Source: a virus. From it: DNA of 39,899 bases. The notes beneath the pieces are model-generated. The model saw only the letters and a list, made by a program, of their open reading frames with translations. It did not search any database and was not told the origin of the DNA. Shown in pieces: positions 8,172 through 39,899 of this stretch. Within the stretch, counting starts at the first letter, position 1; each line of letters opens with the position of its first letter. The stretch is from UHGV virus genome UHGV-0045955. One strand, 5' to 3'. The position numbers and the translations under genes were made by a program.

Positions 8172-8822
8172 TTATGGAAGGTTTGCTATTTTTGCATCGA
8201 CAACTACACCGATGATTTTGCAGTTCCCGTTGATCTCAATCATCGGATATTGTGGGTTAAGTGGTTTTAGAAACCTTCTGCCAGCATCAATAACTAACTT
8301 CTTGAAAGTTGCCTCGTTTTCTCCTTCGAGCTTTGCCACTACCAGCTTCCCATTACGAGGTTCTACTTCAGGATCGACTAGTATTATCATCCCTTCCGGG
8401 ATGCTAAGACCGGCTGGAGCCGTCATCGAATCACCCTTTACGTCCAGCCAAAACGAATCTTCTGAACAATCTACGGTTGTATCGTACCAGTTATCTATTG
8501 CACGCTTATGATATGGCTCTACAGCTTCCATCCAACATCCTGCGCTTACCCAACTAATTAGAGGATACGAACCTCTTGGATCATGCCTGCTGTGATAGGC
8601 AATGTTTGAAAGACTATCTTCTCCTTTCAACAAGTAATCAGGGGAGCACTGCAAAGCCTTGGCTAAGGCCAATAGGTTTTCGCCATTGGGCTCAGTTTCA
8701 GAACGCTCCCATTGGGAAATAGCAACATTAGACACGCCAACCATCTTGCCAAGGGCAGCCTGCCTAATCTTGAGTTCTTTTCTGCGAGCGCGAATACGCT
8801 CACCCATCAGTTGTGTATTCAT
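8172..8822 (-). CDS. c2: C2 repressor (lambda CI-type HTH plus S24 autopeptidase), P22 type
   Basis: 216-aa ORF, near-identical by recall to phage P22 C2 (MNTQLMGERIRARRK...). Confidence 0.95.
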   Translation of the reverse strand: MNTQLMGERIRARRKELKIRQAALGKMVGVSNVAISQWERSETEPNGENLLALAKALQCSPDYLLKGEDSLSNIAYHSRHDPRGSYPLISWVSAGCWMEAVEPYHKRAIDNWYDTTVDCSEDSFWLDVKGDSMTAPAGLSIPEGMIILVDPEVEPRNGKLVVAKLEGENEATFKKLVIDAGRRFLKPLNPQYPMIEINGNCKIIGVVVDAKIANLP

Positions 8823-16164: not shown

Positions 16165-16358
16165 AACGATGGGTTAATTCGCTCGTTGTGGTAGTGAGAT
16201 GAAAAGAGGCGGCGCTTACTACCGATTCCGCCTAGTTGGTCACTTCGACGTATCGTCTGGAACTCCAACCATCGCAGGCTGAGAGGTCTGCAAAATGCAA
16301 TCCCGAAACAGTTCGCAGGTAATAGTTAGAGCCTGCATAACGGTTTCGGGATTTTTTA
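16165..16358 (+). ncRNA. Short PR'-to-tR' leader transcript (lambda 6S-RNA equivalent)
   Basis: Inferred from PR' and the tR' terminator about 190 nt downstream; the 5' end is approximate. Confidence 0.4.
16298..16358 (+). terminator. tR' Rho-independent terminator
   Basis: Long hairpin ATCCCGAAAC...GTTTCGGGAT followed by TTTTTT. Confidence 0.8.
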
Positions 16359-16648
16359 TATCTGTGCAACAGGTAAGAGCATTTGTAGAGTTCGACTCTC
16401 TACCGTGGGCTTTTTCCCGCGATGCGAGCCATAAATGCTCTTTCCGTTGTGCTGAATTAAGCGAATACCGGAAGCAGAACCGGATCAACAAATGCGTACA
16501 GGCGTCATCGCCGCCCAGCAACAGCACAACCCAAACTGAGCCGTAGCCACTGACTATCCTGAACTCATCAGCGATAGTTACGCTGCGGCCTTCTTTTCCC
16601 CTTCCCAATATAAGAACTACGCAATCCGTTACTGGCGGAGGCGTTGCT

Positions 16649-16864
16649 ATGAAATCAATGGACAAAATCTCAACTGGCATTGCTTACGGAACATCCGCTG
16701 GTAGTGCGGGATACTGGTTTTTGCAGTGGTTGGATCAGGTCAGTCCATCACAGTGGGCTGCGATTGGAGTGCTTGGAAGCCTTGTGTTGGGCTTTCTCAC
16801 CTATCTGACAAATCTGTACTTCAAAATCAGAGAAGACAGAAGAAAGGCTGCGAGAGGTGAATAA
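16649..16864 (+). CDS. S: Class II holin / pinholin (phage 21 S21 type) with dual-start motif
   Basis: 71-aa [31 protein letters not shown]..., two TMDs; GGAGG RBS. Confidence 0.9.
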
Positions 16865-30104: not shown

Positions 30105-31490
30105 ATGGCTACGTGGCAACAGGGTATTAATTCTGGTGGTTTTCTGGCTGGCATCGGTACGCAAAATGAGAATGCGCCAAAGGCAAGCGACATTAACGCA
30201 ACGCTTGGTCTGATCCGCGAAAACAATGAACTGGCTCGCTCAGGTGCAAATAACGTTGGCCTGACCGCGTTACGTGGCCTGGCTGGAGTTGCTGATATTT
30301 ACAATCAGGAACAGCAACAGAAAGCGATTAGTGCGTTCAATAAGGTTCATGCTGATGCATGGGCTTCTGGTGATCCATCGGGACTATTTAAGTTTGCCCA
30401 GGAAAATCCAGCGTTTGTTGCACAGGCACAACAGGCGTTTTCTGGTCTTAATGAGCAGCAACGCAACGATATGGGCGATTTAGCCATGAGGGCTAACGTC
30501 GCTCTTTCTCAGGGACCGGAAGCCTACAGTAAATTCATTACTGACAACAAGGACAGGTTAAATCGCGTTGGTGCTAATGCTGACTGGATGATTCAGACAG
30601 GTATCCAGAATCCAGAGCAGCTATCACACATGCTGACTACTATGTCTCTCGGTGCACTTGGGCCAGAAAAGGCGTTTGCTGTTCAGGACAAGATGGCTGG
30701 TCGTGAAATTGACCGAGGCAGGCTGGCAGAGACAATCCGCAGCAATCAGGCTGGCGAGGCACTTCAGGCGAGAGGGCAAAACCTTTCCTATCAGTCAGCA
30801 ATGACTGGACACGGACTTGCAGCAGAAAGACTGGCACTTGATAAGCAGAAATTCGGTTTTGAAGTACAACAGGCACAAAAGAAGGCCGATGAACTTATTA
30901 ATGCTGCGCCAAAACTATCCGTGAACATGGAAAAGGCTATAGAAAAATCAGCAGGTGATGCGGCAGCTAGTCGTAATGCTGCCGATTCAATGACAACGCT
31001 CGCTGACACGCTGGAGAAGGAGAAGCCAACTCCTGGTTTGTTCGGTAACGCTGAAAATATGTTCTCTAAGCTTACGGGGCAAGATAACTACCTCCGAGAT
31101 ATGCGGATTAGATTCAACCAACTAGCCAATGCGCAGGCAACCAAGCTTCTACCTCCCGGCCCTGCATCAGATAAGGATATTGAGTTTGCAAGGAAAGGCA
31201 TTCCAAGCGAAACGGATAATCCAATGGTCATGGCTCGATGGTTAAGGGGTATGGCAAAAATGGAAAGTAATAACGCGAAGTTCAACGAGTTTAGGTCAGA
31301 GTGGATGAGTGCAAACGGCAGCCCTGGACAATCTGATCGCAACCGAAACATCATGGGGATGGATGTTAAGAAGGGTGAATCATTGAACTCTGCGGCAAAA
31401 CGTTTTCTTTCCTCAAGTTATGGCGATAGCCAACCTCAACAGCAATTGTCCGATGACGAATTAATTAGCAAATATCTCGGAGGGCAGTAA
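30105..31490 (+). CDS. 20: Ejection protein (P22 gp20 type)
   Basis: 461-aa ORF in conserved order. Confidence 0.85.
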
Positions 31491-33316
31491 TGGCTTATAG
31501 TCGTGAACAATTGATGACGGCGTTAAGGAATGCTGATGCTGCTGGTGATACTGAGGGAGCACGTCGCATTGCTCAGATGCTGTCTTCTGGTGATCAATCC
31601 ACCCAAAACCAATCGCAGCCAGAAGAACAATCTCTGGTAGGAAAAGCTACTGACTGGCTCACTGGTGGTCAAAGTGCAGGGCAAATTGCAGAACAGGCTG
31701 GTCGTGGTCTGGTAAACATACCATTTGACGTATTGCAGGGTGGCGCAAGTCTGATTAATGCAATCAGTCAGGGGCTTGGTGGGCCAAAAGTATTGGATGA
31801 TGTCTATCGTCCAGTAGACAGACCGACAGACTCCTACGCTCAAGCTGGAGAAACAATTGGCGGGTATTTAGTTCCAGGAGTTGGAACGGCAGGAAGTATG
31901 GCTATTGGATCACTGGCAGAGGCCGCAAATCAGAAAGGTGATTTCGCACAAAATGCAGCTAAAAATGCCGGAGTTAACCTTGCCGCTCAGGGTGTTCTTT
32001 CCGCAGCAGCAAAGGGAATAGGGCGTGGAATAACGGCTATAAAAGGTGATATTGCGCCAGAAGTGGCGAAGAAAATTGCCACATCAGAATCGATGGGCGT
32101 GACACCAATGACATCTGATGTTATCCCGCCGAAAAATGCTTTCACTCGCGGACTTACTCAGGATGCTGAGGGGGCTTTGCTCGGGACAGGCTCAAAGCGA
32201 GCGGAGCAATATGCAACGCGTAGTAAGCTGGTAAGCAATTATTTTGACCGTTTTGGTGAGTACAACCCTGATGATGTGGTGAAATCTCTTACCACCACGT
32301 TAAGGGGGCGGAAGGATGCCGCTGGCGCTGTTATCAATGACGTCACCAATAAAATGGGTAATGCCGCAGTTGATACCACAAATACCATGAATGCTCTGAA
32401 TACAGCGATCGCAAGACAGGAACGGCTTGGGACGTCTGCCAATCAAAGCCTGCTTACATCCTTGCGTAACCTACGTGAAGAATTAGCAAACCCTGCAACT
32501 GATTTGGATGTTACGTTTGATCTCTTGCGTCAGCACAGAACAGCATTTAGATCTAATGTTCAGGGAGATGCTATGGTCTTCCCCAACCAGGCAAAAGCAG
32601 CTACCAATATGGTAGAGAATGCAATGTCAAAAGACCTTCGTAACGCAGTTGCTAAAAACCTCGGTGCATCAGACGCAGCAAAATACCTTAAAGCAAATTC
32701 CGATTATGCAAACGTTTATAATAAGGTGCTTAATAAAAACATTGCCAACAAGCTCAACAAGGCAAGCAGCGAAGCCAGTCCTGAACTTATAAATACCGTT
32801 GTATTAAGCAGAAAACCATCTGACGTGAAACGAATCTGGAGCGCACTGGATGATAAGGGGAAAGATGCTATGCGTGCAGCTTACGTCAGCAAAATAGCGG
32901 AAAAGGCCGGGGACTCTCCAGCCAAGTTCATCACTGAAGTTAATAAGCTGAAATCTCAGTCAGGCGGTGAAATTTACAACACTATTTTTTCTGGAAAGCA
33001 CATGAAAGAGCTTGATGCTCTTCATGAAGTTCTACAGCAAACAGCAAGGTCAGACACCGCAAATGTAGTAACTCAGACGGGGCAATCGCAAGCCAACAGG
33101 ATAAGGACGATTGGCGCAACTGCGACCCTTGGCGTATCAATGGGGCTTGAGGCTGGTTTTGGTGCAATGATGCGCTTGTATGAGTCCAAAGCAGCAAGAA
33201 ATATGCTTCTTCGTTTGGCAAACACCAAAGCAGGAACACCAGCCTATGAAAGAGCGATAAATAACGCTGCGAATGCCATCAGACCGCTGTTTGCTACTGA
33301 GGCAACACAGCAGTAA
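31490..33316 (+). CDS. 16: Ejection protein (P22 gp16 type)
   Basis: 608-aa ORF in conserved order. Confidence 0.85.
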
Positions 33317-33340
33317 CGTATGGGAAATTGGATTCAATCG

Positions 33341-33730
33341 CTAACATTTTCTTTTTACTTTTCCAACAAAAGCTTTGGTTGAATCCATATTTCCATAACC
33401 GGAAATGGTTTTTGACATTAAAACTGTTCCAGTAGGATGTATTACCCATGAGTCGATAACGCGTTGAGTTTCGCCATTCGCGCCGATTCCTATGATGGAG
33501 TTTTTAGACAATGCTTTGTAAGCCATGCCGCCCGCATCTGTCCCAGAATATGTGATGCTGGCATCTTCACCGTTTGTCTTAATGATGAATGTTCCACTAA
33601 AACCATCTTCTTCCGGGTGGAAATTATTTCGTTCTGAATAGCTTATTCCGCGCATATCTCCAACGACCCAGCACTCTGCTGTAGCCCCAAAAGATATGAA
33701 TAAGAACATAGCAGTAAGAAATTGCTTCAC
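33341..33730 (-). CDS. Secreted hypothetical protein with cleavable signal peptide
   Basis: 129-aa ORF; N-terminal MKQFLTAMFLFISFGATA then ECWV; lies where P22 carries sieA. Confidence 0.6.
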   Translation of the reverse strand: MKQFLTAMFLFISFGATAECWVVGDMRGISYSERNNFHPEEDGFSGTFIIKTNGEDASITYSGTDAGGMAYKALSKNSIIGIGANGETQRVIDSWVIHPTGTVLMSKTISGYGNMDSTKAFVGKVKRKC

Positions 33731-33847
33731 GCCAACCTCCTTAGTTTTGAGCAGGATACCATGAAAAAAGTAAACATCTTTTGCCTACTTCACATTTGAA
33801 TGGTTTGTCATTAGGATGTTTCCGGTTTTTTAAATATGGAAATTGAT

Positions 33848-34267
33848 ATGAAGAGGATTATTGGCGTCGTTGCTGGCGCTATATTGTTATCTGGGTGCGC
33901 AACTATTGTTGGTGACGAAACGCAGCTTGTGCAAGTGAACAGCAATCCTTCCGGTGCGAGCTTTAAGGTAAAAGACGAATCAGGCGTGATTGTTGCGCAA
34001 GGTAAGACCCCACAAGGAGTAACTCTTGCCAAGTCAGATGGTAGTTATTTTGGCAAAAAGAGCTACCAGATCACTATGGAAAAGGATGGGTACGAACCAG
34101 TTACCCTGCCAATCAAAGCCAATGCTAATGGCTGGTATATTGGTGGAAACCTTGTGTTTGGTGGGTTAATTGGTTGGCTTGCTGTAGATCCTTTTAATGG
34201 TGGGATGTATACCTTGAAGCCAAAAGAGGCAAACGCATCTCTTATACCATCAACAAAGCAAGACTAA
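33848..34267 (+). CDS. Lipoprotein with PEGA-like beta domain and Gly-rich hydrophobic C-terminal segment
   Basis: Signal MKRIIGVVAGAILLSGC with lipobox LSGC; region NSNPSGASFKV...GKTP...KDGYEPVTLPIKA resembles a PEGA domain; C-terminal WYIGGNLVFGGLIGWLAV. Confidence 0.6.
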   Translation: MKRIIGVVAGAILLSGCATIVGDETQLVQVNSNPSGASFKVKDESGVIVAQGKTPQGVTLAKSDGSYFGKKSYQITMEKDGYEPVTLPIKANANGWYIGGNLVFGGLIGWLAVDPFNGGMYTLKPKEANASLIPSTKQD

Positions 34268-34275
34268 TAAATAGG

Positions 34276-34298
34276 ACCCACCTTCAGGTGGGTTTTTT
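34276..34298 (+). terminator. Rho-independent terminator between the lipoprotein gene and mnt
   Basis: Hairpin ACCCACC-TTCA-GGTGGGT followed by TTTTTT. Confidence 0.7.
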
Positions 34299-34535
34299 GT
34301 ACAAATCCTTCAGCGTATCAAACACCATCTTCTTAACAAGCTCTGACTGCTCATCAGCGAGTCGTTCTGCATCGTCGCGATATCCAGTCACAGGCGATGG
34401 TTTTGATAGAGCATCTTGGACGATTTGTAACAACTCGGAGTTCATTGATCTCCCATTCGCCTCCGCCCTGAATTTTAATTTCTCCCTTACTTCCATAGGC
34501 ATACGGAAGTTAAAGTGCGGATCATCTCTAGCCAT
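34284..34535 (-). CDS. mnt: Mnt repressor (ribbon-helix-helix)
   Basis: 83-aa ORF matching P22 Mnt by recall (MARDDPHFNFRMPMEVREKLKFRAEANGRSMNSELLQIV...). Confidence 0.9.
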   Translation of the reverse strand: MARDDPHFNFRMPMEVREKLKFRAEANGRSMNSELLQIVQDALSKPSPVTGYRDDAERLADEQSELVKKMVFDTLKDLYKKPT

Positions 34536-34562
34536 GCCATCACTCCAAGTTAGTGTATTGAC

Positions 34563-34609
34563 ATGATAGAAGCACTCTACTATATTCTCAATAGGTCCAC
34601 GGTGGACCT
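34563..34609. promoter_or_regulatory. immI operators O_arc and O_mnt with divergent Pant/Pmnt promoters
   Basis: ATGATAGAAGCACTCTACTAT at 34563-34583 (Arc operator as recalled); perfect 17-bp palindrome AGGTCCACGGTGGACCT at 34593-34609 (Mnt operator). Confidence 0.75.
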
Positions 34610-34625: not shown

Positions 34626-34787
34626 ATGAAAGGAATGAGCAAGATGCCGCAGTTCAATTTGCGGTGGCCTAAAGAAGTATTGGATTTGGTCCGCAAGGTG
34701 GCGGAAGAGAATGGTCGGTCTGTTAACTCTGAGATTTATCAGAGAGTAATGGAAAGCTTTAAGAAGGAAGGGCGCATTGGCGCGTAA
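34626..34787 (+). CDS. arc: Arc repressor (ribbon-helix-helix)
   Basis: 53-aa product [53 protein letters not shown], matching P22 Arc by recall. Confidence 0.9.
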
Positions 34788-34789
34788 AG

Positions 34790-34860
34790 TTGAAGCCCCA
34801 ACTGCGGGAACAGTCAGGGCTTCGGTTGTCAGTAAATCCGTGGAGAAAAACCAACATGAA
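34790..34860 (-). ncRNA. Candidate sar-like antisense RNA across the arc-ant junction
   Basis: Placed by analogy to P22 sar; a GAAGCCC...GGGCTTC stem is present in the interval. Endpoints are not determined. Confidence 0.3.
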
Positions 34861-35758
34861 TAGTATAGCAATTTTAGAAGCAGTGAACACCTCTTACGTA
34901 CCATTCAACGGTCAGCAAATTATCACCGCCATGGCTGCCGGAGTTGCATATGTTGCGATGAAGCCAATCGTTGAAAACCTTGGAATGAGCTGGTCAACGC
35001 AGCAAACAAAACTCATGAAGCAGATTAGCAAATTCAACTGTGTTCATATGAACATGGTTGCCGCTGATGGGAAGCTTCGTAAGCTACTCTGCCTTCCTTT
35101 GAAGAAGTTAAATGGATGGCTGTTCAGCATCAACCCTGAGAAAGTTCGTGCTGACATCCGTGATAAACTGATTCAGTACCAGGAGGAATGCTTTAGCGTG
35201 CTGCATGACTACTGGACGAAGGGAAAGGAAGAAAATGCACGTAAGAAAACATCTGTTGATGACAGGACTCCGCTTCGTGATGCTGTAAATATGCTAGTCA
35301 GCAAAAAGCATCTAATGTACCCAGAAGCTTATGCAATGATTCATCAGCGTTTCAACGTGGAAAGTATTGAAGAGCTTGATGCATCTCAGATACCGCAAGC
35401 AGTAGAGTACATCCACAGGGTAGTGCTTGAAGGCGAGTTTATTGGCAAACAAGAGAAGAAAGCAAACGAGCTTTCTGCAAAAGAAGCAAACAGCCTTGTA
35501 TGGTTATGGGATTATGCCAACCGTTCACAGGCATTATTCCGCGAACTGTATCCGGCGCTAAAACAAATTCAATCGAACTATTCCGGCAGATGCTACGACT
35601 ACGGTCATGAATTCTCGTATGTTATCGGAATGGCGAGAGACGTTTTAATCAATCACACACGAGATGTTGATATCAATGAGCCAGACGGACCAACGAATCT
35701 TTCCGCATGGATGAGACTTAAGAATAAAGAATTGCCTCCTTCAGTACATAACTACTGA
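34856..35758 (+). CDS. ant: Antirepressor Ant
   Basis: 300-aa product from ATG at 34856 ([21 protein letters not shown]...), matching P22 Ant by recall. Confidence 0.9.
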
Positions 35759-35780: not shown

Positions 35781-35896
35781 NNNNNNNNNNNNNNNNNNNN
35801 NNNNNNNNNNNNNNNNNNNNNNNNNNNNNNNNNNNNNNNNNNNNNNNNNNNNNNNNNNNNNNNNNNNNNNNNNNNNNNNNNNNNNNNNNNNNNNNN
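35781..35896. other. Run of N (assembly gap) followed by G9T8 homopolymers
   Basis: Read directly. Confidence 0.95.
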
Positions 35897-39138: not shown

Positions 39139-39849
39139 TTATTGTTTTTCTTTTGTTAGGTTCCAATATTCACTTGTGGTTTTTATGGAGTCCTTATTAG
39201 GCTTTACATAAGGTTTATGTATGGAGAGATGAGGTCTTTCCCAGGCAATGTCTTTTTTTATTACTCTTGCTGGAACTCCTGCTGCAATAGAGTTATTTGG
39301 GACGTGTCCTTTAACAACAGCTGCATAGCCAATAACACTACCACTTTCGATTTCTGCACCACCAAGTATTGCCGCTCGGCGGCCAACCCAGACATGACTT
39401 CCAATATAAATAGATTTTGGCATATTTATACGTTCACCTGTTACTACACTAAAAATAGGGTGGGAGTCATCAGTTTTAACTTCATTTCCACTTGAAAACA
39501 TGCAGTCATCGCCAATAATTATGCTTGAGTTTTCTACAGCAGAAATCATACCTTTACCAGTGCAAGTGAAATCAGAGCCTATTTTTATGGAGGAATTCTC
39601 ACCCACTCTTATATGGGCTTGTATACCTTTGTTTGCGATATGGCATGGGCCAATTTCAAAATACCCATTGTTGCAGTCAAAATATATCTCAAAATATTTT
39701 AATGATGCATCTTTATGAATGATAAGTTTATTATTAGATCCTCTAAACTGAATTAGTTTGACGTCACAACTACCTTCGTACTGGATCTCATTACCCATTT
39801 CATCAGAATACTTCTCTGCTTTTGTTAAAACAACTTTTCTAATTTTCAT
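39139..39849 (-). CDS. Hexapeptide-repeat (left-handed beta-helix) acetyltransferase, probable polysaccharide O-acetyltransferase moron
   Basis: 236-aa product from ATG at 39849; repeated [LIV]-G-x4 hexapeptide pattern (IGDDCMF, IGSHVWVGRRAAILGG, IGYAAVV); visibly AT-rich relative to the structural genes. Confidence 0.8.
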   Translation of the reverse strand: MKIRKVVLTKAEKYSDEMGNEIQYEGSCDVKLIQFRGSNNKLIIHKDASLKYFEIYFDCNNGYFEIGPCHIANKGIQAHIRVGENSSIKIGSDFTCTGKGMISAVENSSIIIGDDCMFSSGNEVKTDDSHPIFSVVTGERINMPKSIYIGSHVWVGRRAAILGGAEIESGSVIGYAAVVKGHVPNNSIAAGVPARVIKKDIAWERPHLSIHKPYVKPNKDSIKTTSEYWNLTKEKQ

Positions 39850-39899
39850 ATTATCAATAAGTAAAAAATGCAAATGAAAATTTCAAATTTACATTATCT

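Follow-up and report, generated by a model that had tools for sequence, protein, structure and literature searches.

Two divergent genes follow the DNA ejection gene of a P22-like prophage

We analyzed a stretch of viral DNA of 39,899 nucleotides (nt) (UHGV virus genome UHGV-0045955, hereafter the window), which represents a nearly complete prophage of Escherichia coli of the P22-like type (Lederbergvirus). The analysis concerns the segment between its gene-16-type DNA ejection gene and the maintenance repressor gene mnt. Two divergent open reading frames (ORFs) are found there: ORF A on the minus strand, here named hexL, which by its sequence belongs to the Hex family of phage 434 and is predicted to encode an exported protein, and ORF B on the plus strand, which encodes a putative lipoprotein and is followed by an intrinsic terminator. 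Coordinates are given in Table 1. An earlier reading of the DNA (the original prediction) had described a Sec-signal protein, a lipoprotein, and a strong terminator in the slot where P22 carries sieA, and had taken the genes for envelope-directed accessory genes of a prophage. These elements were recovered at the same positions, including the Sec signal, the lipobox, and a terminator of -14.5 kcal/mol, and the view of the genes as prophage accessory genes for the envelope is upheld.

The P22 sieA gene lies on the minus strand, 23 nt past gene 16, and hexL lies on the minus strand, 24 nt past gene 16; hexL is the exact positional counterpart of sieA, strand included. The location by which SieA is recognized, the interval of P22-like prophages that is bounded by gene 16 and the tailspike gene, is also that of hexL, the tailspike gene being the next gene beyond ant. 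The region is the hypervariable "ant moron" that was already described with the genome of phage epsilon34 (PMC2629481). The other occupants of the post-gene-16 slot are all envelope targeted, namely, SieA, an hkcB-like protein, and a lipoprotein of family phrog_6067. The hkcB-like protein, gp14 of epsilon34, combines an N-terminal transmembrane segment with a coiled coil and bears a weak resemblance to Rz-type spanins. The phrog_6067 lipoprotein has 161 to 171 amino acids (aa), a lipobox LLAGC, and a Gln-rich sequence (gene 13 of phage Gally, L003:1891-2406, and L029:2381-2866). E. coli MS 16-3 matches positions 33200 to 34400 of the window with 100% identity, and this stretch was found in 45 complete E. 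coli genomes, with 99.7 to 100% identity among the matches listed. E. coli O111:H- 11128 is a further lysogen with this prophage.

Table 1. Positions of the features discussed, as coordinates of the window; genes of main interest are listed first
Feature	Position	Strand	Details or basis
hexL (ORF A), 129-aa Hex-family protein, predicted to be exported	33341-33730	-	
hexL predicted signal peptide	33677-33730	-	aa 1-18
hexL mature part, 111 aa, predicted beta-barrel	33344-33676	-	Cys20 and C-terminal Cys129
hexL 5' leader, putatively portable	33731-33761	-	extended -10-like TGGTATCCT (33753-33761) and Shine-Dalgarno AAGGAGG (33736-33742)
Divergent intergenic region, 117 bp, AT-rich	33731-33847		
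Promoter-like site of lipoprotein gene	33789-33817	+	-35 TTCACA, 17-nt spacer, -10 TAGGAT; 9/12 consensus matches
ORF B, 139-aa lipoprotein gene (= epsilon34 gp15, phrog_6823)	33848-34267	+	
ORF B predicted lipidation site, Cys17	33896-33898	+	follows signal peptide, aa 1-16
ORF B beta-sandwich, transthyretin/CarboxypepD_reg/PEGA-like	33920-34126	+	aa 25-93; AlphaFold2 model
ORF B Gly-rich hydrophobic motif NGWYIGGN.VFGGLIGW..VDPFNGGMYTL.P	34127-34222	+	aa 94-125; near-invariant
Intrinsic terminator of lipoprotein gene	34274-34298	+	fold and site scan
Gene-16-type DNA ejection protein	31490-33316	+	phrog_770 DNA transfer protein, E 5.7e-262
mnt, maintenance repressor	34284-34535	-	annotation of identical E. 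coli prophages
Pant/Pmnt promoter pair	34558-34591		promoter scan
arc	34626-34787	+	annotation of identical E. coli prophages
sar RNA	34788-34855	-	Rfam, 95.6 bits
ant	34856-35758	+	annotation of identical E. coli prophages
LexA-like c2-type repressor	8172-8822		

hexL belongs to the 434 Hex family by sequence

ORF A matched a single PHROG family, phrog_2651, with an expectation (E) value of 2.9e-61, and 434 Hex matched the same family (E 1.4e-58). Direct comparison of the two proteins by BLASTP gave an alignment from end to end, with 27% identity over 133 columns (E 3e-12) and the conserved blocks ECW(I/V)V, (E)TW.I, and STK.FVG.V...C. A tblastn search of phage genomes returned matches to ORF A in 434, lambda imm434, Sf6 (gp38), HK446, HK633, and Sf101, with 100% query coverage and 27% identity. 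The identity of the 434 gene as hex is established by its DNA, which is printed in PMC3564112 and is the sequence translated here. ORF A itself is annotated as "hypothetical protein" throughout the matching records examined, and the link to Hex is absent from them. In 434, Sf6, HK446, HK633, Sf101, and Enterobacter prophages, hex directly follows cI, and in 434, Sf6, and Enterobacter its start overlaps the cI stop codon. This position, with cotranscription from PRM, is not that of hexL, located between gene 16 and mnt; ORF A is thus assigned to the family by sequence and signature, not by genomic location.

To define the signature of the family, we compiled 117 representatives at 50% identity by a profile search, of which 115 were examined and 100 were full length. 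Nearly all have lengths of 122 to 140 aa. Nearly all of the full-length proteins have a Sec-type signal at the N terminus, with x-C-W/Y behind it, and the C-terminal cysteine is kept in 98 of the 100. In the alignment, the signal ends with A-x-A, a cysteine is invariant two residues into the mature part, and a tryptophan is conserved. ORF A carries the entire signature, that is, the Sec signal, Cys at mature position +2, W95, G123, and the C-terminal Cys. We conclude from these sequence features that the Hex family is exported.

The start codon of hexL is the GTG at 33730, 6 nt downstream of AAGGAGG, and homologues start with MK at the place of this GTG. The RefSeq/PGAP version of the protein (L004:3142-3510) has 122 aa and begins at an internal ATG, so that the signal peptide lacks its first 7 residues; such truncated starts may partly explain why export of the Hex family went unrecognized. 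The N-terminal signal peptide, MKQFLTAMFLFISFGATA, precedes ECW at the predicted cleavage site and is the sole hydrophobic segment of ORF A. The mature protein has a size of ~12 kDa, and AlphaFold2 (AF2) models the product as a barrel of 8 to 9 strands (predicted local distance difference test score, 86.6). The ratio of nonsynonymous to synonymous substitution rates (dN/dS) of ORF A is 0.28 to 0.42.

In the window, phage Emek, and E. coli PK8241, hexL stands alone, outside an operon of this kind, and upstream identity among the three copies is limited to ~40 bp that contain TGGTATCCT and the Shine-Dalgarno sequence. The leader is also identical in epsilon34, where it precedes the unrelated hkcB-like gene 14, the switch occurring at the start codon. 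Positions 33731 to 33761 thus appear to be a portable expression signal of hexL, with a putative promoter.

Searches of Pfam, NCBIfam, and PADLOC with ORF A, both as protein and as family alignment, gave nothing above cutoff, neither protein of the slot had a match in PADLOC-DB at E ≤ 1, and a PDB sequence search with both returned only noise. For ORF A, the profile searches suggested with the original prediction gave nothing in standard libraries except phrog_2651, a family of unknown function, and structure prediction, suggested likewise, provided models of a barrel and a sandwich.

Genomic contexts of the Hex family

The Hex family extends from prophages of enterobacteria to cassette arrays of Vibrio and to marine gammaproteobacteria. 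Three P22-like prophages (loci L112 to L114) carry an hexL gene of 87% identity in a translationally coupled operon, mnt - Rap1a-like gene - hexL. The Rap1a family comprises immunity proteins against amidases of the type VI secretion system (T6SS), and the Rap1a-like protein of these prophages has its own signal peptide. In L112 (4399-5390), and likewise in L113 and L114, the mnt stop codon overlaps the start of the Rap1a-family gene; a gene resembling T6SS immunity genes is unusual on the operon of a prophage maintenance repressor. In both settings, behind cI and in the mnt operon, the gene is part of a transcript that the lysogen produces for its repressor. In Vibrio parahaemolyticus (L019 to L021), the homologue is one of many small genes, unrelated to one another, that form a long array on one strand (GNAT, NUDIX, RhuM, and T6SS_Tdi1_C); by its gene content, the array looks like a chromosomal integron cassette array. 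The Microbulbifer homologue lies in a prophage or island. Overall, the Hex family looks like a stand-alone accessory function.

Published data on 434 Hex

The hex gene of 434 was named for "heterologous exclusion": P22 is excluded by S. Typhimurium that is lysogenic for lambda-imm434 but not by the corresponding hex- lysogens (PMC3564112, with reference to Susskind & Botstein 1980). The protein is also annotated as "repressor protection protein", for which a cytoplasmic role was proposed, namely, that it shields the repressors of 434 and P22 against cleavage stimulated by RecA (PMC3564112, Shkilnyj et al. 2013). In that study, hex- lambda-imm434 lysogens released 30-fold more phage in a recA-dependent manner, full-length Hex was toxic or lethal on overexpression, a stable, active fragment was termed sHex, and a 61-residue Hex fragment complemented partially and, in vitro, inhibited the cleavage of both repressors (PMC3564112).

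We located sHex on the predicted precursor. It starts at GAATGCTGG, hence at the E-C-W that is the predicted signal-peptidase site of the 134-aa Hex (L013:2501-2905), which corresponds to Glu43 in the 158-aa ORF used by the authors (PMC3564112). The fragment covers the first half of the predicted barrel and ends in its middle. Export of Hex was not considered in PMC3564112, which was the only study found in our literature search for further work on hex.

ORF B encodes a predicted outer membrane lipoprotein of a widespread family

ORF B starts at ATG 33848; the ATG at 33836, which would give 143 aa, was rejected because it is missing in the versions of Gally and AZ159. The lipoprotein thus has 139 aa instead of the 140 originally counted, whereas the ORF, the lipobox, and the Gly-rich C terminus stand as described. 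The lipobox is LLSG-C17 (MKRIIGVVAGAILLSG followed by C-A-T) and agrees with the pattern L-(A/S)-(G/A)-C after a signal peptide, with Ala instead of Asp at +2 and Thr next. In 28 diverse homologues, the cysteine and A-T-I-.-G are invariant; the mature protein starts with C-A-T-I-V-G. Under the established +2 rule, alanine at this position predicts sorting to the outer membrane, to which the ORF B product is accordingly predicted to be routed.

The original prediction had seen a PEGA-like domain in the mature part. The match to Pfam PEGA (PF08308) scores 17.6 bits and falls below the gathering cutoff of 20.8, but the AF2 model does show a transthyretin-like sandwich. Apart from this weak match, searches of Pfam, NCBIfam, and PADLOC with the protein and its alignment gave a weak C-terminal match to LEPBI_I2678 and lipoprotein matches restricted to the signal peptide. 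The Gly-rich motif that follows the sandwich is the most conserved part of the family (conservation, 0.90); residues 95 to 113 consist of 32% Gly and have a Kyte-Doolittle value of 1.28. AF2 models this segment as a low-confidence helix followed by a hairpin that packs back on the sandwich, and the motif is predicted to be membrane active.

Selection on the gene is strong. The dN/dS ratio of ORF B relative to epsilon34 is 0.04, and synonymous sites are saturated while the proteins stay 55 to 77% identical. Both hexL and the lipoprotein gene are, as judged from these substitution patterns, under purifying selection.

Signals for separate expression of ORF B were identified on both sides. The upstream promoter-like site has a counterpart in a second, diverged version of the intergenic region (61% mean identity), in which CTTCAC and TTA.GAT are unchanged; the number of promoter-like sites in the region is not above that in shuffled sequences. 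The terminator (GGACCCACC-UUCA-GGUGGGUUU plus U-run) has a 9-bp stem and U6 (z = -2.5), overlaps the 3' end of mnt, and is weaker on the minus strand; the epsilon34 record marks the same element as a Rho-independent terminator. Of the hallmarks of morons, a terminator was found for the lipoprotein gene and a patchy distribution for both genes, and the putative promoters are consensus-like elements whose key bases are conserved across diverged versions. By these sequence properties, the lipoprotein gene appears to behave as a classic moron.

The family is not confined to phages. More than 728 homologous clusters were found, and a scan of one genome per species revealed relatives of 51 to 80% identity in 212 species, which span Enterobacterales, Pasteurellaceae, Halomonadaceae, Shewanella, and beta-, zeta-, and deltaproteobacteria. 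In 15 Erwiniaceae genomes the gene occupies a conserved nonprophage locus between mmuP-mmuM and a GNAT gene, near nrdHI, and a longer form adjoins pepN in a metagenomic contig. Clustering of the neighbors (all-versus-all comparison of the ORFs of 80 loci) revealed no conserved partner beyond the lineage-specific synteny in Erwiniaceae. Homologues of 41 to 43% identity were also observed on Pseudomonas aeruginosa plasmids of 200 to 290 kb and in Acinetobacter (A. baumannii); the family also travels on plasmids outside Enterobacterales. The label "YceK", which JGI gives to two homologues, was ignored, as it has no Pfam or NCBIfam support.

Family members were captured as morons in at least four slots of unrelated Enterobacterales prophages: (i) before mnt in P22-like phages, (ii) in the gap between the tail chaperone and tape-measure genes of HK97-like E. 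coli prophages, (iii) upstream of the tape-measure gene in Proteus prophages, and (iv) between gpI and gpJ in Pseudescherichia prophages. These sequence data indicate that ORF B is the phage copy of a conserved, host-derived envelope lipoprotein of proteobacteria that was captured repeatedly. In the HK97-like prophages (L009 to L012, e.g., strain ED1a), the lipoprotein moron lies between gpT and the tape-measure gene, and tail genes M and L flank a porin gene (Porin_1). The tail operons of L009, L010, and L012 also include an Arc-Ant cluster, in L009 and L010 with ClpP ahead of it, so that the operons contain several morons each.

The two genes recombine independently

Among 5,426 complete E. 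coli genomes, ORF A was present in 147, this allele of ORF B in 124, and both in 45. In epsilon34, ORF B and its terminator follow an identical intergenic region, but the gene at the other end is the unrelated hkcB-like one, with the switch precisely at the GTG start codon. In Gally and E. coli AZ159, ORF B alone is joined to the gene of the 171-aa phrog_6067 lipoprotein, and in Emek and E. coli PK8241, ORF A occurs with a P63C-domain gene and other genes in place of ORF B. Recombination junctions of both hexL and the lipoprotein gene fall at gene borders. The two genes are unrelated. They are separately mobile and not a unit, since each is more common without the other and the junctions coincide with gene borders. 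In E. coli HCM-22C-2, an hkcB remnant fused to a truncated replication gene marks a deleted prophage.

The comparison of the same slot in related prophages, which had been proposed with the original prediction, therefore speaks against its view of the genes as a pair or module, because the partners of both vary. We consider it very improbable that they form a two-component envelope module consisting of a periplasmic partner and an outer membrane lipoprotein. Such an arrangement would agree with their adjacency, divergent around 117 bp, and with the near identity of the pair among the matches listed from the 45 genomes that share it; yet these 45 genomes compare with the much larger numbers that carry either gene, the lipoprotein gene is joined to other minus-strand genes in epsilon34 and Gally/AZ159, the partners of hexL are P63C or other genes in Emek/PK8241 and Rap1a in L112 to L114, and the lipoprotein homologues of other prophages and of chromosomes never neighbor hexL.

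Proposed roles and alternative explanations

We propose that the slot contains two independent single-gene morons and no two-part system: hexL would encode a periplasmic exclusion factor and ORF B a captured envelope lipoprotein. We give this combined reading an even chance. HexL would be made in the lysogen and exported by Sec, after which it would be oxidized to form the disulfide-stapled beta-barrel of the 434 Hex family. It would then exclude superinfecting P22-like phages, presumably from within the periplasm, by hindering a periplasmic step of their DNA delivery; candidate targets are the conduit of ejection proteins, the needle, and the murein hydrolase of the virion. The proposal is based on the homology to Hex, on the export signal and cysteines found throughout the family, on the modeled barrel and the position of the gene, and on the lysogenic operons in which relatives occur. 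The idea of exclusion is strengthened because HexL is homologous to 434 Hex, which is needed for exclusion of P22. The lipoprotein would do the job of its cellular family for the lysogen, in a kind of envelope conversion similar to that by Bor or the Lom/OmpX-like proteins. Superinfection exclusion, for which the original prediction had nominated both genes, is hence retained as a possibility for the secreted protein, given its homology to 434 Hex, and is less likely for the lipoprotein as a receptor mask.

Several points weigh against this reading. The case for exclusion by HexL is drawn from homology, position, and a structural model; identity to Hex is only 27%, so that the specificity may differ, and the Hex block of P22 could be late and abortive instead of acting at entry. 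The structural neighbors of HexL are generic barrels that give no functional clue. The consensus promoter scan did not call the extended -10-like element of hexL, and the oppositely oriented lipoprotein cassette and its terminator separate hexL from Pmnt in the window. In addition, the sole biochemical study of Hex gives it a cytoplasmic role (PMC3564112). As regards the lipoprotein, AF2 confidence for the hydrophobic helix is low (~55), and a conserved target of the protein could still be a conserved outer membrane receptor of phages.

Two other functions of HexL have to be weighed. If the product were a cytoplasmic binder of cI/c2-type repressors that prevents RecA-stimulated autocleavage and so stabilizes the lysogen, this would agree with the phage release by hex- lysogens, the partial complementation, and the inhibition in vitro reported in PMC3564112, and the window prophage does possess a LexA-like c2-type repressor. 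However, practically all family members keep a Sec signal of the cleavable type together with paired terminal cysteines, which makes no sense for a cytoplasmic repressor binder, some members have no adjacent repressor gene (ant moron of the window, Vibrio cassette array), and the exclusion of P22 by Hex is left unexplained. Moreover, sHex starts at the signal-peptidase site and represents approximately half a barrel refolded from guanidinium hydrochloride, for which a native fold is unlikely. We therefore give the cytoplasmic mechanism low weight and regard it as improbable for HexL, in view of the family-wide signal and cysteines, the start of sHex, its half-barrel nature, and the toxicity of full-length Hex. 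Slightly less improbable, though still rather unlikely, is a periplasmic immunity protein or inhibitor directed against T6SS peptidoglycan hydrolases, colicin-like toxins, or lysozymes, with phage exclusion as a side effect of inhibiting the virion murein hydrolase. The Rap1a-family gene directly upstream of hexL in L112 to L114 and the T6SS_Tdi1_C gene beside the Vibrio homologue in its integron-like array point in this direction, and there is partial overlap with the exclusion role favored here, as exemplified by T4 Spackle-like exclusion via inhibition of the gp5 lysozyme. Against it, no effector gene adjoins the family member in any locus examined, most of the contexts examined are prophage lysogeny operons, and neighbors in cassette arrays imply no functional linkage.

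For the lipoprotein, the alternative is a Cor/Llp-type exclusion protein that blocks a receptor or DNA delivery at the outer membrane, a comparison already made in the original prediction. It has in its favor the lipobox with the outer membrane sorting signal, the promoter-like site and terminator of the gene itself, and the fact that prophage copies are always found in late or tail regions, in slots known for exclusion morons. One of them, the tail chaperone/tape-measure gap, we take to be the position of HK97 gp15. This protein is covered by PMC10883804 (ref. 8 therein). The comparison with Cor did not hold in the profile searches, where the Cor models matched only the signal peptide and below their cutoffs, and PADLOC gave no match. 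Furthermore, the gene is chromosomal and inherited vertically in Erwiniaceae and also occurs in many nonenteric proteobacteria, the carrier phages (P22-like, HK97-like, and lambda-like) differ in their adsorption machinery, and its very strong purifying selection is unlike that of arms-race exclusion proteins such as the diverged SieA types. This alternative therefore appears unlikely, if less so than those considered for HexL. By analogy, a conserved envelope function is weakly favored over masking of a specific phage receptor, because the phage copies keep all residues that are invariant in the chromosomal proteins and their carriers use different receptors.

A broader generalization is offered tentatively, as we judge it less probable than the combined reading above. 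The Hex family as a whole, including 434 Hex, may consist of exported, disulfide-stapled beta-barrels that act singly in the periplasm to stop the delivery of phage DNA; in that case, the RecA/repressor mechanism that was published would be an artifact of a half-barrel devoid of its signal, and the 3' border of gene 16 would be a hot spot at which SieA, HexL, the HkcB-like protein, and the phrog_6067 lipoprotein are swapped.

Comparison with known systems

(i) HexL shares with 434 Hex (= Sf6 gp38, phrog_2651) homology over the full length, size, the Sec signal with E-C-W, and the C-terminal Cys; both are carried by temperate lambdoid or P22-like phages, with relatives in a repressor operon expressed in the lysogen. 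In contrast to 434 hex, hexL is highly diverged and located in the ant moron at the sieA position, with its own short leader, instead of behind cI, and the published cytoplasmic mechanism does not fit an exported family. (ii) With P22 SieA, HexL shares position, strand, its nature as an envelope-located prophage accessory gene, and P22-like phages as the expected class of targets. There is no homology: SieA is a polytopic inner membrane protein with a cytoplasmic FxRYPxEAxxFNK motif, whereas HexL is modeled as a soluble exported barrel with no membrane segment past the signal peptide, and direct reading of the sequences of both slot proteins showed that this motif is absent. The SieA types themselves share under 30% identity with each other (PMC10883804). 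(iii) Glo of Vibrio phage K139 is likewise a small Sec-exported exclusion protein of the envelope, and its gene is also in a cI operon, but its fold is helical and not a beta-barrel. As a homologue of Hex it was rejected, since hhalign gave a probability of 36% and aligned only the signal peptide. T4 Spackle is another small exported phage protein; it inhibits the gp5 lysozyme and stops superinfection at the envelope, and its fold is helical.

(iv) Gene 15 of epsilon34 (phrog_6823) corresponds to ORF B, with 98% protein identity and the same intergenic region, terminator, and position before mnt. In 2008 it was reported only as matching "numerous bacterial genes", with no function assigned (PMC2629481), and our literature search on the lipoprotein found nothing beyond this genome paper. 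(v) Lom (OmpX/Ail family) and Bor/Iss are single-gene morons of late operons with their own transcription signals, and their outer membrane products alter the host surface; Lom/OmpX resembles ORF B also in having chromosomal relatives. There is no sequence relationship to ORF B, a sandwich with a Gly-rich motif, and Pfam Lambda_Bor gave no match to ORF B at E ≤ 1. (vi) Cor and Llp are small prophage-encoded outer membrane lipoproteins of tail gene regions but have no widespread chromosomal orthologues, and ORF B is twice as long and has a sandwich domain. Homology of ORF B to Cor was rejected: the matches to NCBIfam NF047972 (11.7 bits; cutoff, 31) and phrog_1119 involve only residues 1 to 20 and 1 to 30 (E 0.0034 and 0.19, respectively).

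The original prediction had recognized no named system at the locus, which overlooked the link to Hex, the description of the region as the ant moron, and the identity of the lipoprotein gene with epsilon34 gene 15. Prophage accessory genes in the ant moron are of a known kind, and the locus reveals no new kind of system. The present analysis adds the link to Hex, evidence for export of the Hex family, and the demonstration that the lipoprotein is host derived and was captured repeatedly. If HexL excludes P22-like phages from the periplasm, this would be a third nonhomologous block of the ejection-protein conduit, beside SieA and O-antigen modification, and escape mutants could reveal the virion protein that is exposed in the periplasm during DNA delivery, a poorly understood step. 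The mechanism of 434 Hex would then need reexamination, because the signal peptide and Cys pair of the family are hard to reconcile with cytoplasmic protection of a repressor. The lipoprotein carries less weight for phage biology, but it flags a conserved family of proteobacterial outer membrane lipoproteins that is unnamed and uncharacterized in the searched libraries and has no Pfam or NCBIfam entry of its own.

Flanking genes and additional observations

RefSeq names the product of 31490 to 33316 "P22-gp16 family phage DNA ejection protein". The gene after the c2-type repressor gene of the window is that of an N-like antiterminator. A run of 115 N, masked or unsequenced, occupies positions 35782 to 35896; the stop codon of ant lies on one side of it and the G8T8 tail of the pre-tailspike terminator on the other. 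Two further minus-strand ORFs may be extra morons: one of 146 aa within the rightward late/nin region (16240-16680), for which a 24-residue PHROG match was obtained, and one of 244 aa past the tailspike gene (39139-39873), which matches phrog_30105.

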